Origin: Escherichia phage dw-ec
Direction: 5' to 3' (one strand)
Sequence record: OL739525.1
Length of the DNA stretch: 64,000 bases
A model generated the notes under the pieces. The model made no database searches, was not told where the DNA came from, and worked only from the letters and a program-made list of their open reading frames with translations. Positions 8,432 to 32,936 of the stretch are shown one piece after another. The position numbers and the translations under genes were made by a program. The stretch's first letter is position 1, and the number at the start of each line of letters is the position of its first letter.

Positions 8432-8433
8432 GA

Positions 8434-8460
8434 AAAGGAGCCATTTGGCTCCTTTCTTTT
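8434..8460 (+). terminator. rho-independent terminator (possibly bidirectional)
   Basis: GGAGCC-attt-GGCTCC stem-loop followed by TTTCTTTT after stop of 5759..8431. Confidence 0.7.
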
Positions 8461-8497
8461 ATAAAGTTAACTCTTCCCATGTTCTTGTGCCGCTTCT

Positions 8498-8520
8498 GGG
8501 GGGCCCCCCCCCCCCCCCCC
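8498..8520. repeat. G6-C17 homopolymer tract
   Basis: GGGGGG followed by 17 consecutive C in the convergent intergenic gap between late and minus-strand blocks. Confidence 0.9.
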
Positions 8521-8535
8521 TATAGATCAATAAGA

Positions 8536-9423
8536 TCAGAATGGAATATCATCATCGAAGTCCATTGGAGGTTCTTCTTGATTACTTGGAGTTGGTTCTG
8601 GTTGTGGTTCAGGTTTTTTAACTTCTTTCTTCTCTTCTTTCTTAGGTTGTTCTGCGGAACCACGAATGGCAGCAGCAACTTTATCAGACAAAGCTAGAAC
8701 TTTACGAGCAGAGTCAATCAAATCTTCTACAGATACAGTCTTAATGGTATGGTCTTTACAAGCATTGAGGATAGCGTGACCAACAGATGCCCCAAGATCA
8801 TAATCATTAATGTCAACGCCACGAGATTCAGCAATTTCCGATTTCAGCGTGACAGTTGCAGATTGAACAACCCCAGCGATATCGAAAGCATCACCTTTAA
8901 CACCATTACGAATCAGTTCCAGTGCACCATTTACTGCGTGACCAGTTTCCAGACCTACAGTATCACGTTTTTTATAGGACTGCTTAGGAGCAGCATCGTT
9001 GGAACCTTTATTGCCAGAAGATTTGTTAGACTTCTGAACACCATCGGTAGACAATACTGTAATACGAGATTTTTTAGTATTGTAGTAAGTTTTACCGCCT
9101 TTATTATCAACGCGATCAATATCAATACTTACTTCTACACCTTTTTCAATAGTGATCCAATTATCACCTTCTTTGACTTGCAGGTTTTCATAACCTTCTT
9201 TCAGTTCAATGTCACCAAGAGAAATCCAAACACCTTTCTCATCTGGTTTAGCACCTTTCTCTTTCAGAACAAGAGAAGCTCGGTGAGTTGAAACAATCGT
9301 TTTTCCTTCCCAATGAAAAGTTTTAGGTTCAGCGAATTTATCCAGTTTAACGTAGTCTACGATACCAGTTGCATAAGTTACGGTTTTGCCTTTACGATCA
9401 GTTTCAGTATTAATTACGGACAT
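8536..9423 (-). CDS. putative ssDNA-binding protein carrying a host SSB-type C-terminal tip
   Basis: 295 aa, ATG with GAGGAG RBS; Lys/Pro/Glu-rich linker then C-terminal PPMDFDDDIPF, the same nine-residue tip as E. coli SSB; N-terminal domain not obviously E. coli-SSB-like. Confidence 0.55.
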   Translation of the reverse strand: MSVINTETDRKGKTVTYATGIVDYVKLDKFAEPKTFHWEGKTIVSTHRASLVLKEKGAKPDEKGVWISLGDIELKEGYENLQVKEGDNWITIEKGVEVSIDIDRVDNKGGKTYYNTKKSRITVLSTDGVQKSNKSSGNKGSNDAAPKQSYKKRDTVGLETGHAVNGALELIRNGVKGDAFDIAGVVQSATVTLKSEIAESRGVDINDYDLGASVGHAILNACKDHTIKTVSVEDLIDSARKVLALSDKVAAAIRGSAEQPKKEEKKEVKKPEPQPEPTPSNQEEPPMDFDDDIPF

Positions 9424-9439
9424 TATTATCTCCTCTACA

Positions 9440-9832
9440 TTACATTAATTTTGCACAGAAAGAGCGGAGTCTTTCCATATCATCTTGCTCTAACAGGTAT
9501 TTACCTTTACCTATTCCAACTCCAATTTCACCATTAGGGAAATGAACTATTTGCACTGGAAAACCTCCGAGTTTAATTGTGGCAGCTTTGCCTTCTTCGT
9601 CTATAACGTTTCGGATTGTATCTTGCAGTGAAATGAATTCTTTGTTTGTAACAGTGGTTTCAATTATTTCAGATGTTTCAACACGAGCAGTTAGCTTCTT
9701 GTTTCCACCTTGAATAACCAAAATTTGAAAATAAAAAGAGTTGTCAAGACCTACAACATTTTTCTCAACTAGTGTCAAACTGGTATAGTTTCCATAAACA
9801 GTTTCAACAGCTATCTTAGAACGTTCAGTCAT
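9440..9832 (-). CDS. hypothetical protein
   Basis: 130 aa ORF co-directional with replication block. Confidence 0.55.
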   Translation of the reverse strand: MTERSKIAVETVYGNYTSLTLVEKNVVGLDNSFYFQILVIQGGNKKLTARVETSEIIETTVTNKEFISLQDTIRNVIDEEGKAATIKLGGFPVQIVHFPNGEIGVGIGKGKYLLEQDDMERLRSFCAKLM

Positions 9833-9877
9833 TGAATGCTATCCTATCATAAAATGTTTAATATTGTCAAGCTTTAA

Positions 9878-10471
9878 TTACCAAGGAATATCCTCTTCTT
9901 CCAATCTGGTATCTACTTGAGGTGGACGTGGAACCTTAACCTCTTTCACAAAACGAAGATATGGGAAACGTGTAGCAATTTTAATAACGTGTTTGGCATC
10001 TTCTCTAACGTCTTTGTGCAAGAAGCAGATCCCTGTTTCCAAGGTTGTTTCAAAATCTTTAGAATAATAACAATCCTTCCCATCAAATGCAGCCTGGCAG
10101 ATGGACAGATCGAACTCATTTAGAAAGGTTGTCATTACGCTTGGTTCCATAATCATAAGGTTGCAAAGCTGACCATCACGTTCAAACTCAAAAACGTGTT
10201 TAAGACCAGTAACACCTTCATAATTGTCAGAAGCCTCTTTGTTTCCTAGTTTACGAATATTGGTTCCCATTAAAGCAGATGCAATTAATCCTTGTATTTG
10301 TTCTTCAGTCCGATGTGCAGGAAGGGATGTATAGAAATCAAGATCACGTCCAGCAATATCAAGAATACGCCAATCACGAACAGCACCGCCAGCCAAGACA
10401 GAATTAGGATCAGCGATCTTTAATACGGTAAGAATTTCTTTGGCAATATTGATTTGTTTTGATTTAGTCAT
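9878..10471 (-). CDS. nucleotidyltransferase-fold protein (pol-beta superfamily head domain-like) with acidic IPW C-terminus
   Basis: GGAVRDWRILDIAGRDLDFYT resembles the GGAVRD...DxD head motif of CCA-adding / poly(A) polymerase class II NTases; C-terminus EEEDIPW resembles SSB tip. Confidence 0.45.
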   Translation of the reverse strand: MTKSKQINIAKEILTVLKIADPNSVLAGGAVRDWRILDIAGRDLDFYTSLPAHRTEEQIQGLIASALMGTNIRKLGNKEASDNYEGVTGLKHVFEFERDGQLCNLMIMEPSVMTTFLNEFDLSICQAAFDGKDCYYSKDFETTLETGICFLHKDVREDAKHVIKIATRFPYLRFVKEVKVPRPPQVDTRLEEEDIPW

Positions 10472-11100: not shown

Positions 11101-13698
11101 TCAATGACAGGATGCCCAAGAATTCCCCACATCATATCCAGCAGTAAGCTGAACATTAAGATTGTAAAATTCTCCAGCCTTAGTAACAGCTAAAGCAGCA
11201 AGTTCACCTGCCCGACTATAAGCTGTAAACCATCCACCTTTGGGAGATTCATGAATGTTAGCCCAAATTTGCCCTGTCTCTTTTTCCTTATTATGCTTCC
11301 ATTCTTCGACTTTAGCAAGGCATTCTTTATCAATTTTCTTTTGTTCTTCAGGATCGTCTACTTTCTTCCAACCTAATGATTCAGGTGAAAACCATTTGAA
11401 TTCTACAAGGTTACGAGAAACTTCAAGCTGGGCTTCATCGTGATATGCAATCATTTGTTGCACGAAGTCTTTATTCTTCCAGTCATCTTTAAAGAAGTCA
11501 ACACTTAGCCCTTCTTCTTCGATCATGTCATCATAAATAACCATTGCACGTTTAGCACAGATAACCCCACCGCTTTGGAACAGAGAGTTAAGAATCGCGT
11601 GAGCAGAACGAGTAGGAACCTTACGACCGTCAATACCCAAAACATATTGTTTACCAGTCTTAACCCAGAAATCATTTAAACGTTCTTTAAGACGCGCCAA
11701 TGGGAATGCAGCTTCCCAGAAAGCATCGAACACCAATTGACCTGTAAACTTGTCGCTACCAATTGTTTTAGCAACCTTGTCGGCTTGTGCACCATAGGTA
11801 ATACCATACTTAACAGATTTAGCAGGACTACGTTCAAATTTACGTCCAATAGTTTCAGTGATACGTTTTGCCATCATTGTGTGAACATCGTTAGGTTTCT
11901 CTAACAACAGAGCGTTACAATATTCGTGTGGCTCTGGCTCGTACCGCCAACAGTAGTGTGATTCAATTTTTGCTTCCAAAGAGTCGAAGTCGTAGCCAAT
12001 CTGGAAGTACTTAGGAACCTCTACACCAAACAAGTTACGCATCTCCCATCCAAACAAAGATGTGACACGAGGAATATTAGCTACAGACCTATGCTTCATA
12101 CGAGAGGTTGCAGCATCACATGTAGCTGCTGGGGTAGGAATACGACCATCCGCCCTTACTGCGGCTAAGAAACCTTTATCATATTCTTGATCTTCCTCAT
12201 CTTCTTCCCAATCAGCACCACCGCCTAAAATAGAGTTCCTACGATGCTTATACGTTAAGTATTCTACAATCTGTGTAGCATAAGGGAATTTCTCACCTAA
12301 AGCTTGCAGGTTAGGACAGATTTCTTTTTCCTGACCTTTGGTAAAACATGGGTTAGTCAATACTTTAAGACCGCGACCCTTACCTTTTGCTATACGCTCT
12401 TGAATCTTCCTCTCCAAGGTTTCCGGTGTGCACTCCAGATGATCACAACGATCCTGACAAAAATTAGAAGACAGAGTTTGCTCAACGTAAGCTCGAATAC
12501 CTTTCTGAAGTTCTTCCTCGCTCTTTTTAATCTTGGTGCCAGATTTAAGAGTCAAGTCTTTATCTTTATATTCAGACGGTACCCAACCTAATCCTACAAG
12601 CCAGTTTTTAATATGGGTAGTATCGTTCAATGTTGCAGGGATATTAGGATCACACAAAGGCTCATCTGCTGCAACTGGCAGTTTCCATTCTTTCCCCAAC
12701 ATCACTAACCACCAATCTCCATCCCTCTCTTCCAAATGACCATCATGTTTCTTAGCAAAATTGATCATATGGTTAGTTGGCTCTAAGTTCTTTTTAATTT
12801 GCAACTTAGGTGGAATAAAAGCCTTAAGATAACCTTTTGTTGCTGGTTTAGGTGGCAAAATAGGCTCAACGAGTAAACGAAGACGCTCCATTTCTGCATC
12901 CAAAAAAGCAAGGTTCTCTTCTGCTTGTTTCATGTTAAAAGCAAACCCACGGTGTTCCTGGCGTGTAATAATGTCTGCTACACGTTGTTCAAGTTCAAAT
13001 GGACCTTCCCATTTATCATAATCACCCCATTCTTCCATAAGGTAATTATATACGCTCGTATTGGCTTTGTTGTCATAGATACAGTAATAAAGCATATCCG
13101 CAGCAAAAGTCTTAAATCGATCTTCTTCTGGAATCTCTTTACGGAAATCTATTTTTACATCACCCCCTGCCTTTCGAGAAAGTGCTGCCAAGCTATGTCC
13201 TGATTTGCCCTCAATCTTTCGATCTGGGTTTAACACTTTACTCAAAATCAAGGAGTCAATAAGTTTTACCTTATTTTTGCCCCACGTATTATATTTAACA
13301 CTGTAATCTAAACCATAAAACAGTTTTGTAGCCAACCAGTCATAGTTGATACCGTTGTGAGCCACAGCTATTTCAACCAGATATTCAGGCTTATCTTTAA
13401 AATAACCTTCATGATTAATAAAGTCTGGGAAATCTTTTAGTTGAAAATGTGTGTAATCTTGCGCCACATACTCTTTAAGAACATATGTGTATTTACCATC
13501 TGACTCTTCATAAGAACGCCCATCAAAGATGTATTTAGGGCCATCGTGGAAAGCTACTATTTCTCCTGTTTCATGGTTCTCTAAGACAATACAGTGCATT
13601 TGAAATGTGTCTTTGAGACGATAAGGACTAGCTAAATAATCGATAGTGTCATTATTCAACAATCCGTTTGCTTCAATATCCCATGTAAACTTACTCAC
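11101..13698 (-). CDS. DNA polymerase, family A (T7 gene 5-like) with 3'-5' exonuclease domain
   Basis: 865 aa; N-terminus ...DIEANGLL and C-terminus ...NSWASCH parallel T7 DNA polymerase (DIEANALL ... NWAICH); GTG start overlapping upstream stop, AAGGAGG RBS. Confidence 0.9.
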   Translation of the reverse strand: MSKFTWDIEANGLLNNDTIDYLASPYRLKDTFQMHCIVLENHETGEIVAFHDGPKYIFDGRSYEESDGKYTYVLKEYVAQDYTHFQLKDFPDFINHEGYFKDKPEYLVEIAVAHNGINYDWLATKLFYGLDYSVKYNTWGKNKVKLIDSLILSKVLNPDRKIEGKSGHSLAALSRKAGGDVKIDFRKEIPEEDRFKTFAADMLYYCIYDNKANTSVYNYLMEEWGDYDKWEGPFELEQRVADIITRQEHRGFAFNMKQAEENLAFLDAEMERLRLLVEPILPPKPATKGYLKAFIPPKLQIKKNLEPTNHMINFAKKHDGHLEERDGDWWLVMLGKEWKLPVAADEPLCDPNIPATLNDTTHIKNWLVGLGWVPSEYKDKDLTLKSGTKIKKSEEELQKGIRAYVEQTLSSNFCQDRCDHLECTPETLERKIQERIAKGKGRGLKVLTNPCFTKGQEKEICPNLQALGEKFPYATQIVEYLTYKHRRNSILGGGADWEEDEEDQEYDKGFLAAVRADGRIPTPAATCDAATSRMKHRSVANIPRVTSLFGWEMRNLFGVEVPKYFQIGYDFDSLEAKIESHYCWRYEPEPHEYCNALLLEKPNDVHTMMAKRITETIGRKFERSPAKSVKYGITYGAQADKVAKTIGSDKFTGQLVFDAFWEAAFPLARLKERLNDFWVKTGKQYVLGIDGRKVPTRSAHAILNSLFQSGGVICAKRAMVIYDDMIEEEGLSVDFFKDDWKNKDFVQQMIAYHDEAQLEVSRNLVEFKWFSPESLGWKKVDDPEEQKKIDKECLAKVEEWKHNKEKETGQIWANIHESPKGGWFTAYSRAGELAALAVTKAGEFYNLNVQLTAGYDVGNSWASCH

Positions 13699-15000: not shown

Positions 15001-15027
15001 ATTTTTAATAAAAGGGCCGAAGCCCTT
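15001..15027 (-). terminator. rho-independent terminator
   Basis: AAGGGC-uucg-GCCCUU stem-loop (UUCG tetraloop) followed by U-rich tract on minus strand after primase-helicase stop. Confidence 0.65.
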
Positions 15028-16804
15028 AATAGTTGCTATCCGTAGGCAAATTAGCAGGATTGTTGAAATACTGCTCTTTGTCATGCAGAGTTGCAGTTCT
15101 AATGTCATAGTAAAACTGCCCTGCCGGACCAGTTTCCGAGAACTCACGGTTTTTTAGGATAAAGCAATGAGTCGTATTGCGTTCTACAGGGTCTTCAGCG
15201 GCTTTATCTCGTTCCAAAGCCAAGGTAATACCAGCACCTTTAGCCAAAAAACTACTACCCATTGCATCGTCCTCTGTTAAGTGTTCATTGCCACCATTAG
15301 CCGATTTCTTAACGTGTGAGATGACGATAATAGTTATAGCGTACTCTTTCATGATGCGCTTCAACCATGTTGCTAACTCTTCCTGGGCTTGAACATCCAT
15401 ACCAGAAAGCAAATCAGAATAAGGGTCGATAACAAGAATTGTTACTCCAAAATAGATGATCATCTCCAAAACTTTTTCTTTGATAGACTCCACATCTGCT
15501 CCACGATCATCACACACATAAAAACGTGGTGATCCATCTTCTCTTTCGTAAAAATCTAGGATTTTTTCTTTATTCTCTTCCAAGATTTGAAATTTCTCTT
15601 CCGGTGTTTTCCTGTGTAGAGGAATATGCAGGAACGAGGACAACAGGTTACGAGAATATTTCTTATAAGTTGCTTCCAAGGACAGAATACCCAAGGTATG
15701 TTCTGGGTGAGCAACAATAATATGTTTGGTGATCTCGTTCACCATCAAAGTTTTACCGATACTGGTCTTTGCCAGGATCACTGTAATCTCTTCCTCTACT
15801 AAACCACCACCCAGCATATTTGCAGCAACACGCATAAAAGGAGGCAAGGTAATCATCTTGGATTCCAAGCATTCTAATGCAGCTTCATACAAGACATTAG
15901 AAGCATAAACACCTGCTGGGGTGTATAGACGAGCACTCCAAAAAGCTTTTACGAAATCTTTTGCACGACCTTCTTCCAGATACTGATTGGCATCCTTAAG
16001 ATCCATCTGCATACGGTAGACTTTGTTACGGGGCAGCACCTTAACAATATTTTCAAATGCCTCATTACCTGCTTTGTCATTATCCATGCAAACAATAATC
16101 TTCTTAAATTTTTCAAAGAAAGGATATTGTGCCTGAACTTGTTTATACATACTGGTTTCACCAGTTGTGCCACTAACTACTGCTGGAAGTTCATATTTGT
16201 TGTCCAAGTTTTCAGACAACATTTGATAAGCTGCCAGAGCATCGTGTTCACCACCTGTAATTACCACAGTATGAGAACGGTCTGCAAAACGAATTTGTCC
16301 AAAAAGATCTACATCTTTACCTACTTGACCAATAGGTTTACTGAAATCTTTAGGATGGATACGACGCTTAAAACCAACCAATTCTTTACCGATGGTAGTT
16401 GGATATAAACAACTTTCTACTACCATCTGATCCCCTTCCTGACGGTATTCATAACGAACACCATAGAAAGATGAAACTTTTTCTTTAATGCCTCGATAAC
16501 CACGTGGGTTGGTTGATGTTTCTTGAACAATTTTACGATGAATCTGTTTATTAAATTCCGAACCCACAATCTCCTCCTCTTCTTCTAAAACTTCACCATT
16601 TTCTCGTAACCATTCTACGCTAGGAATAGTGTATTCACACGCAAAGCACTTAGCACCTTTATGCTCTCCATTAGAATCTAATCCATAAACCATCAGGTTA
16701 TTACGAGAGCGATCCTTGCCATTTTTCATGCAGCGCGGACAACCTGTATGCCCTTCCTTGCTAAGATCAACATCAAATCCATATTTAGTTATAATGTGCG
16801 ACAC
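15026..16804 (-). CDS. DNA primase/helicase (T7 gp4-like)
   Basis: 592 aa; N-terminal zinc-binding CPRC...CFAC, central TOPRIM-like region, C-terminal DnaB-family helicase with Walker A (AKTSIGKT); GTG start with AGGAGA RBS. Confidence 0.85.
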   Translation of the reverse strand: MSHIITKYGFDVDLSKEGHTGCPRCMKNGKDRSRNNLMVYGLDSNGEHKGAKCFACEYTIPSVEWLRENGEVLEEEEEIVGSEFNKQIHRKIVQETSTNPRGYRGIKEKVSSFYGVRYEYRQEGDQMVVESCLYPTTIGKELVGFKRRIHPKDFSKPIGQVGKDVDLFGQIRFADRSHTVVITGGEHDALAAYQMLSENLDNKYELPAVVSGTTGETSMYKQVQAQYPFFEKFKKIIVCMDNDKAGNEAFENIVKVLPRNKVYRMQMDLKDANQYLEEGRAKDFVKAFWSARLYTPAGVYASNVLYEAALECLESKMITLPPFMRVAANMLGGGLVEEEITVILAKTSIGKTLMVNEITKHIIVAHPEHTLGILSLEATYKKYSRNLLSSFLHIPLHRKTPEEKFQILEENKEKILDFYEREDGSPRFYVCDDRGADVESIKEKVLEMIIYFGVTILVIDPYSDLLSGMDVQAQEELATWLKRIMKEYAITIIVISHVKKSANGGNEHLTEDDAMGSSFLAKGAGITLALERDKAAEDPVERNTTHCFILKNREFSETGPAGQFYYDIRTATLHDKEQYFNNPANLPTDSNY

Positions 16805-16816
16805 TTTGTTCTCCTG

Positions 16817-17095
16817 TTAAAATGGTTCGTTAGTCTCCATCATATATTCTGCTTCTAGTTCTTCCATGTGCTTTCTAAATTGGAAAGCAATTTCTGCTAC
16901 AGTTACATTTAAATCTTTTTCAAAAACTTCTGTAGAGCCTTCGTAAAAACGAATACCGTCAATTAAAAGCCCTCCGTGGTAATCCCAATCACTTTCACGA
17001 GAAAGCGGGTTAGGCTCTTCATAATAGTAATCCACCTCCACGACTAAAGCTTTCCCGTTACGAGTGGTGTATTCAAAATCAAAAGTGTTAATCAT
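16817..17095 (-). CDS. hypothetical protein
   Basis: 92 aa ORF tightly packed between primase and glycosyltransferase genes. Confidence 0.55.
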   Translation of the reverse strand: MINTFDFEYTTRNGKALVVEVDYYYEEPNPLSRESDWDYHGGLLIDGIRFYEGSTEVFEKDLNVTVAEIAFQFRKHMEELEAEYMMETNEPF

Positions 17096-32260: not shown

Positions 32261-32452
32261 TTAAAATGGAAGTCTTTGAAGTTCATCTCCTCCGATATCA
32301 AGTAATTTAGCAACATCTCGATCAGAAAGCAACTCTTTTCTTTGTAAAATATCCACAAGGGTTGCAAGAATATCCTTAACGTCCCGATCACTGTTCTTCA
32401 AAAGTTCTCCTGCCGTCCCTACTCTATCTCCTACAGCAAAATATGTAACCAT
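32261..32452 (-). CDS. hypothetical small protein
   Basis: Internal ATG at 32452 with AGGAGG RBS. Confidence 0.45.
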   Translation of the reverse strand: MVTYFAVGDRVGTAGELLKNSDRDVKDILATLVDILQRKELLSDRDVAKLLDIGGDELQRLPF

Positions 32453-32465
32453 AAAACCTCCTAAG

Positions 32466-32936
32466 TTAATCTGATTGCCAACCACTTGCCGTTTTGGTCC
32501 ATAATCTTTGATTATCTGACCCTCTGAAAGGTTTTGTAGTTGGATTGTTTATTTCATACTTTCCGTCTACAATAATGTCAACAAGATTTTTAATATACAA
32601 AGGCACTTCCTCAAAAGTATATCCTGTATACACCATTATATCTTTGCTTGACCCATAAACGTCTCTAACCTTTTCTATAAGGTTTTTAACATTGTAAATA
32701 TTCTGCGGATCTAATGGCTCTCCTCCTAAAATTGTTAAACCTTTTACAAACGGTCTTGACAAATCTTTTAAAACTTGCTCTACATTTTCGTGAGTGAACG
32801 GTTTCCCATAAGAATAAGACCAGGCTTTTTGGTTAAAACAGCCACGACAACCGTGGCTACAACCACTAACCCAGAGGGAGCACCTAACTCCCTCACCATT
32901 AATAAGATCTACAGGTTCATATCCTGCAAAATTCAA
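32466..32936 (-). CDS. nrdG: anaerobic ribonucleotide reductase activating protein (radical SAM)
   Basis: 156 aa; CSHGCRGC radical-SAM cysteine cluster; TTG start overlapping nrdD stop. Confidence 0.85.
   Translation of the reverse strand: MNFAGYEPVDLINGEGVRCSLWVSGCSHGCRGCFNQKAWSYSYGKPFTHENVEQVLKDLSRPFVKGLTILGGEPLDPQNIYNVKNLIEKVRDVYGSSKDIMVYTGYTFEEVPLYIKNLVDIIVDGKYEINNPTTKPFRGSDNQRLWTKTASGWQSD

Follow-up and report, generated by a model that had tools for sequence, protein, structure and literature searches.

Why does a phage protein end in the peptide with which the SSB (single-stranded-DNA-binding protein) of Escherichia coli docks its partners, and why does a nucleotidyltransferase (NTase) encoded close by end in a similar one? 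The question is raised by a 64,000-nucleotide (nt) stretch of Escherichia phage dw-ec (OL739525.1), hereafter the window, which encodes a protein of 295 amino acids (aa) and an NTase of 197 aa, each of which has, at its very C terminus and borne by a flexible linker, an acidic run and then [ILV]-P-aromatic. As a whole, we consider it moderately probable that the 295-aa protein is a phage-specific replicative SSB with a tip read by host proteins and that the NTase carries an address tag of the same class. A 2.8-kb query around the SSB-like/NTase region gave 96-99% identity to Phapecoctavirus genomes (phAPEC8-like, Stephanstirmvirinae), with Escherichia phage ETEC-TG as nearest relative, and on this sequence identity we assign the window to Phapecoctavirus (phAPEC8/rV5-like).

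The tip of a host SSB on a phage protein

8536..9423, minus strand: gene of the SSB-like protein, 295 aa, PHROG 4477 family (open reading frame; phrog_4477 match, E 2.7e-97)
8539..8574, minus strand: tip EPPMDFDDDIPF, residues 284-295 (identical to the C-terminal tip of E. coli SSB)

The C terminus of the 295-aa protein reads …PSNQEEPPMDFDDDIPF. An earlier note on this DNA had recognized the host SSB tip in its last nine residues; comparison with the E. coli SSB sequence (PDB 1eqq/4mz9) bears this out and extends the identity to the last 12 residues (EPPMDFDDDIPF). The 3' end of E. coli ssb was confirmed in 5101 of 5426 complete genomes. When phage and E. coli tips are compared codon by codon, 12 of 12 amino acids are the same and 6 of the 11 variable codons differ synonymously, following phage usage. 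Since the amino acids are the same while the codons differ synonymously, the tip peptide is held by selection and is not a recent copy. A recent DNA transfer of the tail alone is ruled out by the synonymous divergence together with the phage codons, and a wholesale takeover of host ssb by the lack of sequence similarity beyond the tail, which is itself written in phage codons.

Sequence searches with the remainder of the protein point the same way. We observe no match of the 295-aa protein to PF00436 (Pfam, E up to 1), and the SSB PHROGs are touched only by its tail, phrog_4477 itself being of unknown function. In searches of the PDB with phmmer and with a 49-sequence family profile, only residues ~269-295 align to E. 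coli SSB, and tblastn of E. coli SSB against the ETEC-TG genome recovers only the tail. No second, conventional SSB (PF00436-type) was found by annotation or tblastn in 148 of the 149.9 kb of ETEC-TG, which leaves the 295-aa protein as the sole SSB candidate of the phage.

The window has 384 open reading frames (ORFs) of 40 aa or more, and among these only the SSB-like protein and the NTase have acidic-[ILV]P-aromatic ends; in 148 kb of ETEC-TG, with 1341 ORFs of 30 aa or more, the same two again stand alone. Two tip-bearing ORFs in the window are far beyond chance. The NrdB end, …DDEELDF, was set aside as a classic, unrelated ribonucleotide reductase tail. Two small minus-strand ORFs have weaker tip-like ends without the acidic-[ILV]P pattern: one of 74 aa (32261-32485) that adjoins nrdG and ends in …GGDELQRLPF, and one of 92 aa (16817-17095) that adjoins the primase-helicase gene and ends in …EYMMETNEPF.

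A predicted OB fold without sequence similarity to host SSB

9034..9423, minus strand: predicted OB-fold domain, putative core for binding single-stranded DNA (ssDNA), residues 1-130 (beta-rich in the model; predicted local distance difference test score, pLDDT, ~90 over 1-128)
8659..8967, minus strand: four-helix domain, putative oligomerization module, residues 153-255 (pLDDT 91-97)
8575..8658, minus strand: disordered Pro/Glu/Lys-rich linker, residues 256-283 (pLDDT <50 for 263-284)

To the earlier note, the N-terminal domain had not looked like an SSB fold by eye, and structure prediction was named there as a check. In a model made with AlphaFold2 on the basis of the family alignment (mean pLDDT, 82), it is predicted to be an OB fold after all, a divergent one with no sequence similarity to host SSB. 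The predicted fold is thus SSB-type, yet the protein is not a copy of host ssb. In the model, a disordered segment (residues 131-148) separates the OB fold from four helices (156-172, 179-201, 208-223, and 232-253). The helical domain contains two GHA(V/I)xxA-type motifs, ETGHAVNGAL and SVGHAILNAC, each starting a helix pair, and their similarity suggests an internal duplication in which His residues are conserved.

Compared with E. coli SSB (PF00436), the phage protein shares the predicted OB-fold N-terminal domain, a disordered linker, and the identical last 12 residues, and would likewise coat ssDNA and present a docking peptide. It differs in having no detectable similarity outside the tail, an extra four-helix domain between OB fold and linker, a linker rich in Pro/Glu/Lys rather than Gly/Gln/Pro, and oligomerization probably via the helical domain rather than via the OB fold. 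In our reading, the 295-aa protein, with its divergent OB fold, belongs to a phage-specific SSB family that has no sequence relationship to bacterial SSB, and it would bind ssDNA and probably oligomerize.

This family comprises 137 database clusters, with tblastn matches in 337 phage records, all from large myoviruses of Enterobacterales that are rV5-like: Phapecoctavirus, Justusliebigvirus, and Vequintavirus, plus relatives from Cronobacter, Pectobacterium, Klebsiella, and Serratia. The proteins are mostly annotated as hypothetical and in a few cases as SSB. Tip counts were taken over the 120 homologs listed: [ILVC]PF is present in all 120, DFDDDIPF in 56, and PPMDFDDDIPF in 27. P294 and F295 are invariant, and D288, D290, and D292 are at least 90% conserved; outside the tip, full or nearly full conservation is seen at G20, G95, Y114, D154, G157, G161-H162-A163, T190, K194, G211, and G215. 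The linker columns are unconserved, with both length and sequence varying among homologs. Longer members (375-425 aa) have a second beta domain of ~90 residues inserted after the first, which is absent from the window protein.

Among host proteins, ExoI/SbcB is a classic binder of the SSB tip. According to a preprint of April 2026, ExoI/SbcB modulates the DRT10 reverse-transcriptase defence, which needs Bas52_0087, a protein of BASEL phage Bas52, to be triggered (bioRxiv 10.64898/2026.04.29.721553). In the same preprint, AlphaFold predicts for Bas52_0087 two OB folds and a disordered C terminus with an FDDDIPF motif like the E. coli SSB tip, and a putative oligomerization interface is where two escape mutations, D252V and Y351C, are located. 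Triggering is reported for the Bas52 protein only, with Stephanstirmvirinae likewise restricted by DRT10 (same preprint).

We find orthologs of the window protein, at ~35% identity, in five sister BASEL Vequintaviruses (Bas48_0087, Bas51_0089, Bas54_0087, Bas57_0085, and Bas58_0088). The four that were translated and aligned (Bas51, Bas54, Bas57, and Bas58; 408-423 aa) have D at position 252 and Y at position 351, and Bas57_0085 ends in AFDDDIPF. D252 aligns to the nearly invariant D154 of the window protein, at the start of the helical domain, and Y351 to A250, in the last helix. From these five sister phages, rather than from the Bas52 record itself, the Vequintavirus ortholog of the window protein is almost certainly Bas52_0087. 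The two have in common the family, the helical domain with an escape site, the FDDDIPF-type tip, and the genomic neighbourhood; they differ in that the Vequintavirus proteins carry a second OB domain, and on its predicted structure the window protein is the single-OB variant of the Bas52_0087 family. The SSB-like half of our question was therefore essentially anticipated by the preprint, for an ortholog at ~35% identity, and the tip of the NTase is the newer element.

A nucleotidyltransferase with a tip of the same class

9878..10471, minus strand: gene of a Pol-beta-superfamily nucleotidyltransferase, 197 aa (phrog_10174 nucleotidyltransferase, E 6.5e-63)
10337..10390, minus strand: catalytic head motif GGAVRDWRILDIAGRDLD, residues 28-45 (invariant residues in 12 homologs)
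9881..9901, minus strand: acidic-IP-aromatic tip EEEDIPW, residues 191-197 (ends of homologs)

The NTase had been described as lying two genes downstream of the SSB-like gene, with a GGAVRD...DxD head and an EEEDIPW end. Both sequence features are present (LAGGAVRDWRILDIAGRDLDFY near the N terminus and …RLEEEDIPW at the end), but the position has to be turned around: with both genes on the minus strand, transcription passes the NTase gene first, two genes upstream of the SSB-like gene. G28, G29, A30, V31, R32, D33, W34, D43, L44, and D45 occur without exception in the 12 homologs, and the NTase looks active because G28-D33 and D43-L44-D45 are among these positions.

A Pol-beta nucleotidyltransferase fold was also found in the structural model. 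PF01743, the head domain of poly(A) polymerases and CCA-adding enzymes, matches residues 26-65 at 13.8 bits, below the gathering threshold of 23, the best family member reaching an E value of 0.0011; a search of the PDB with the NTase family profile found no CCA-adding enzyme or poly(A) polymerase. With the head of class II CCA-adding enzymes and poly(A) polymerases (PF01743) the protein shares the GGxVRD...DxD motif and the Pol-beta NTase fold. It differs from class II CCA-adding enzymes in lacking the neck, body, and tail domains that hold tRNA (there is no further domain match in the 197 aa) and in carrying a C-terminal SSB-type tip that those enzymes lack. Motif and model thus describe what appears to be an active, minimal Pol-beta-fold enzyme.

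The NTase model has pLDDT <50 at residues 179-185 and 190-197. Nine of the 10 close homologs (58-97% identity) end in DDIPW and one in DDSFPW, with the linkers before these ends differing in sequence and length, and the NTase of Citrobacter phage Tr1 (36% identity) ends in KDIPW. The tip is missing from the NTases of Justusliebigvirus Bas60 (…NNEEFKI) and Klebsiella phage phi1_175008 (…AWDDL), from the Vibrio homologs, and likewise from the two database entries that are most distant; in Vequintavirus, no NTase homolog was detected. Only ~12 database clusters of NTase homologs are available, so that the phylogenetic depth of these comparisons is shallow. In homologs of both proteins, then, tips are conserved while the linkers before them vary.

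DIPW as a C-terminal tag in phages and cells

A scan of IMG/VR with back-translated [DE]DIPW+TAA matched at least 120 loci, of which 108 in-frame matches were scored. Among the scored matches listed, 102 of 108 are the true C terminus of an ORF (67-933 aa), whereas a control with the same codons and with I and P swapped ([DE]DPIW+TAA) gave 22 matches in the whole of IMG/VR, 6 of which end an ORF of at least 60 aa. With their tips removed, the 102 tip-bearing ORFs fall into 27 clusters without BLASTP links, including PF00436 SSBs, a gp2.5-like SSB, superfamily 2 (SF2) DEAD/ResIII helicases, Pam3-gp34-like proteins, a deoxynucleoside monophosphate (dNMP) kinase, and many families of unknown function. 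At seven loci among the matches listed there are two tip-bearing ORFs, for example a primase (…EEEIPF) beside a …DDIPW protein, and a 3'-5' exonuclease (…LDEIPF) near an SSB (…DDDIPW). The dNMP kinase, a 205-aa phage protein (phrog_139; L050, IMG/VR contig 2706796100_000001), ends in …HVDWSDDIPW, which suggests, by its sequence, a nucleotide-metabolism enzyme tethered via an SSB-type tag. One tip-bearing helicase of 933 aa (L101 9426-12227) contains an intein, an insertion relative to its homologs of 573-601 aa.

In the representative genomes of GTDB, DDDIPW+TAA is rare (32 matches), and the proteins concerned include genuine SSB-type proteins of Nitrosomonadaceae, Legionella, and metagenome-assembled genomes of Clostridia and Bryobacterales. 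A cyanobacterial family of ~510 aa (MPRIPTLTFDRGTLLLHP…; L164, L168, L170, L181, and L183) ends in …DDDDIPW and is a cellular tip carrier that is possibly helicase-like. Judged by these sequences, Trp is a natural though minor substitute for Phe in SSB-type tips, and …DIPW is a widespread tag on unrelated phage proteins, often on replication enzymes other than SSB. Together with the tip of the NTase, this is what is newer here, and we found no description of DDIPW tips in the literature searched.

Could the NTase ending nevertheless be something other than a docking tag, i.e., a lineage-specific tail with a coincidental resemblance to the SSB C-terminal tip (SSB-Ct)? The absences in Justusliebigvirus, Klebsiella phi1_175008, Vibrio, and the two most distant homologs, the terminal Trp in place of Phe, and the small number of database clusters would fit such a tail. 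Its DIPW is nevertheless still present in homologs at every level between 97% and 36% identity, with the 10-15 residues before it varying both in length and in sequence, only two ORFs in 148 kb of ETEC-TG have such ends, and the ending is strongly over-represented at real C termini, across 27 unrelated viral families that include true SSBs. We therefore hold a coincidental tail to be improbable. The survey also leads us to put forward, tentatively, a more general idea: acidic-IP-aromatic C termini (…DDIPF/…DDIPW) might be a transferable phage address code that plugs unrelated enzymes, among them this minimal NTase and, elsewhere, dNMP kinases, SF2 helicases, primases, and exonucleases, into the SSB-tip hub at ssDNA, in which case the NTase might be delivered by its tip to SSB-tip readers and modify nucleic-acid 3' ends or partners in replication or counter-defence.

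Homing endonucleases that bury the tip

8466..8520, no strand assigned: insertion of ~50 nt relative to ETEC-TG (3'-end remnant of an HNH gene plus a homopolymer run)

The tip is internal in 17 of the 120 SSB-like homologs listed, being followed by ~15 further residues (APIGLQYGRNFLHCF and variants), so that the extended C terminus reads …IPFAPIGLQYGRNFLHCF. In Mt1B1_P17, the source of the extension is a homing-endonuclease gene of the HNH type (L001 6060-6530), which sits precisely behind the Phe codon and replaces the stop codon; the endonuclease's own ORF (MVETSCIASKVCFKCG…; start MVETSC…) overlaps the extension in another frame. The same arrangement is seen in Tr1 (L009 5007-5501) and Bas54 (L006 2744-3367); the lineages involved are divergent. 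In Bas60 (L010 4930-4975), the HNH gene is deleted down to 11 codons with the extension kept, and in Bas51 and Bas58 the endonuclease gene lies 9 nt past an intact stop. We considered the 15-aa extension APIGLQYGRNFLHCF as a functional motif or as the product of a group I intron, and dropped both in favour of read-through into the 5' end of the inserted HNH gene.

The conserved DNA that encodes the tip looks like the homing site. Since extended homologs occur, viable phages with a buried tip exist. In the window itself, the insertion contains an HNH remnant at 8476-8487 (minus strand, CAAGAACATGGG) and, after it, G6 (8498-8503) and C17 (8504-8520); the 8466-8520 stretch could be a deletion scar or, alternatively, an assembly or sequencing artefact at a contig join.

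Host or phage partners for the tips

Sites that read SSB-Ct take up the side chain of the terminal Phe in a hydrophobic pocket, its alpha-carboxylate through a basic residue, and the Asp residues along a basic ridge (PMC3159472). We propose that the 295-aa protein would act as the replicative SSB of rV5/phAPEC8-like phages, its OB fold coating phage ssDNA and its four-helix domain probably mediating oligomerization, and that the host-identical tip would let ssDNA coated with phage SSB use the pocket-plus-basic-residue sites that read host SSB. The most likely tip partners would be host SSB-interacting proteins (e.g., ExoI, RecQ, PriA, and RNase HI), since identity to the host peptide over 12 residues would not be maintained by a partner found only in the phage. 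In the Phapecoctavirus clade, the NTase would have gained, by way of a flexible linker, a tail of this class (acidic run-I-P-Trp), which may serve as an address tag that brings the enzyme to docking sites of the same kind, next to SSB or as its competitor. The interpretation given in the earlier note is partly supported.

Some of our observations weigh against this proposal. Where the tip is buried, either the free carboxylate is dispensable, or the tip works internally, or the extension is removed post-translationally. The patchy, Trp-ending, and thinly sampled tail of the NTase belongs here as well, as does the fact that in IMG/VR the same tag is carried by primases, SF2 helicases, a dNMP kinase, and a 3'-5' exonuclease, in some cases by the products of two neighbouring genes.

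The last of these points also speaks for the main rival to host docking, an internal hub of the T7 type, where the tips would bind a protein of the phage's own replisome and not host proteins, the best candidates being the family-A DNA polymerase encoded close by and the primase-helicase, and a shared partner would explain the shared tail. The genes of these two proteins lie in the same replication operon:

11101-13698, minus strand: family-A DNA polymerase gene (replication operon)
15026-16804, minus strand: primase-helicase gene (replication operon)

Both tip-bearing genes are within the polymerase operon, and the phage supplies a full replication set of its own. In T7, the SSB gp2.5 and the helicase-primase gp4 both have acidic aromatic tails, which bind the T7 DNA polymerase. 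The gp2.5 tail and its terminal Phe are summarized in a preprint as mediating binding to T7 polymerase and helicase/primase (bioRxiv 10.64898/2026.02.22.705581). The likeness to the T7 pair is that two proteins of one replication module have an acidic stretch and a terminal aromatic as key docking residue; the difference is that the T7 tails are phage-specific and bind T7 DNA polymerase, whereas here the SSB tail is an exact host copy and the second carrier is a nucleotidyltransferase. A PHROGs search gave no gp2.5-family sequence match for the 295-aa protein, which by sequence and fold stands outside that family while sharing with it an acidic tail ending in an aromatic residue. A phage-internal interface would be free to drift, as in T7 and T4, the T7 tail ending in …DGDF. 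The 12 residues here have instead stayed host-identical despite synonymous turnover, with DFDDDIPF in 56 of the 120 homologs, and the primase-helicase, helicase, and polymerase of the window phage have no such tails. We accordingly regard an internal hub as rather unlikely.

An exact copy of the host tip could also serve as a decoy, with the tips of the abundant phage SSB and of the NTase mainly titrating or misdirecting host ExoI, RecJ, RecQ, RecG, and PriA instead of recruiting them as helpers, and thereby shielding phage DNA ends or halting host repair. A tip on ssDNA-bound SSB would, however, recruit partners rather than remove them, and Bas52_0087 expressed alone left host viability unaffected (bioRxiv 10.64898/2026.04.29.721553). 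Sequestration of this kind seems to us a poor prospect, and we retain docking on host SSB-tip readers as the preferred explanation.

Genome context

8433..8456, no strand assigned: bidirectional terminator hairpin (ends the leftward replication operon, after the SSB-like gene)
9440..9832, minus strand: gene of a 130-aa protein, phrog_16560 (between the NTase and SSB-like genes)

The SSB-like, 130-aa, and NTase genes are all on the minus strand, in the leftward replication operon. The 130-aa protein (9440-9832) has no Pfam match, and in Phapecoctavirus, Citrobacter phage Tr1, and Justusliebigvirus (Bas60) its ORF invariably separates the NTase gene from the SSB-like gene; it may belong to the same module as these two proteins. 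From polymerase … NTase through the 130-aa ORF to the SSB-like gene, the order is kept across Stephanstirmvirinae. A related replication gene, that of the Bas60 DNA polymerase, contains an annotated intein (L010 1-2348). Several records labelled "Campylobacter phage" (MG065650.1, MG065645.1, and others) are 98-99% identical to E. coli Phapecoctavirus and Vequintavirus genomes, and their host labels look doubtful.

Implications

Phages of the rV5/phAPEC8-like group are widely used in therapy cocktails. If the explanation favoured here is right, their replication would rely on a non-canonical SSB which nonetheless employs the docking signal of host SSB, which would help explain why DRT10-like defences key on an SSB-like protein. 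As suggested by the NTase and the IMG/VR survey, the SSB-type tail would then be a portable tag that phages graft onto many enzymes, and it would provide a sequence rule for predicting which uncharacterized phage proteins work at the replication fork. The natural variants of the peptide (IPF, IPW, and LPF) would be of use for probing or inhibiting the pockets of SSB partners, and the phages whose tip is buried by an endonuclease offer a ready-made test of how important a free C terminus is.

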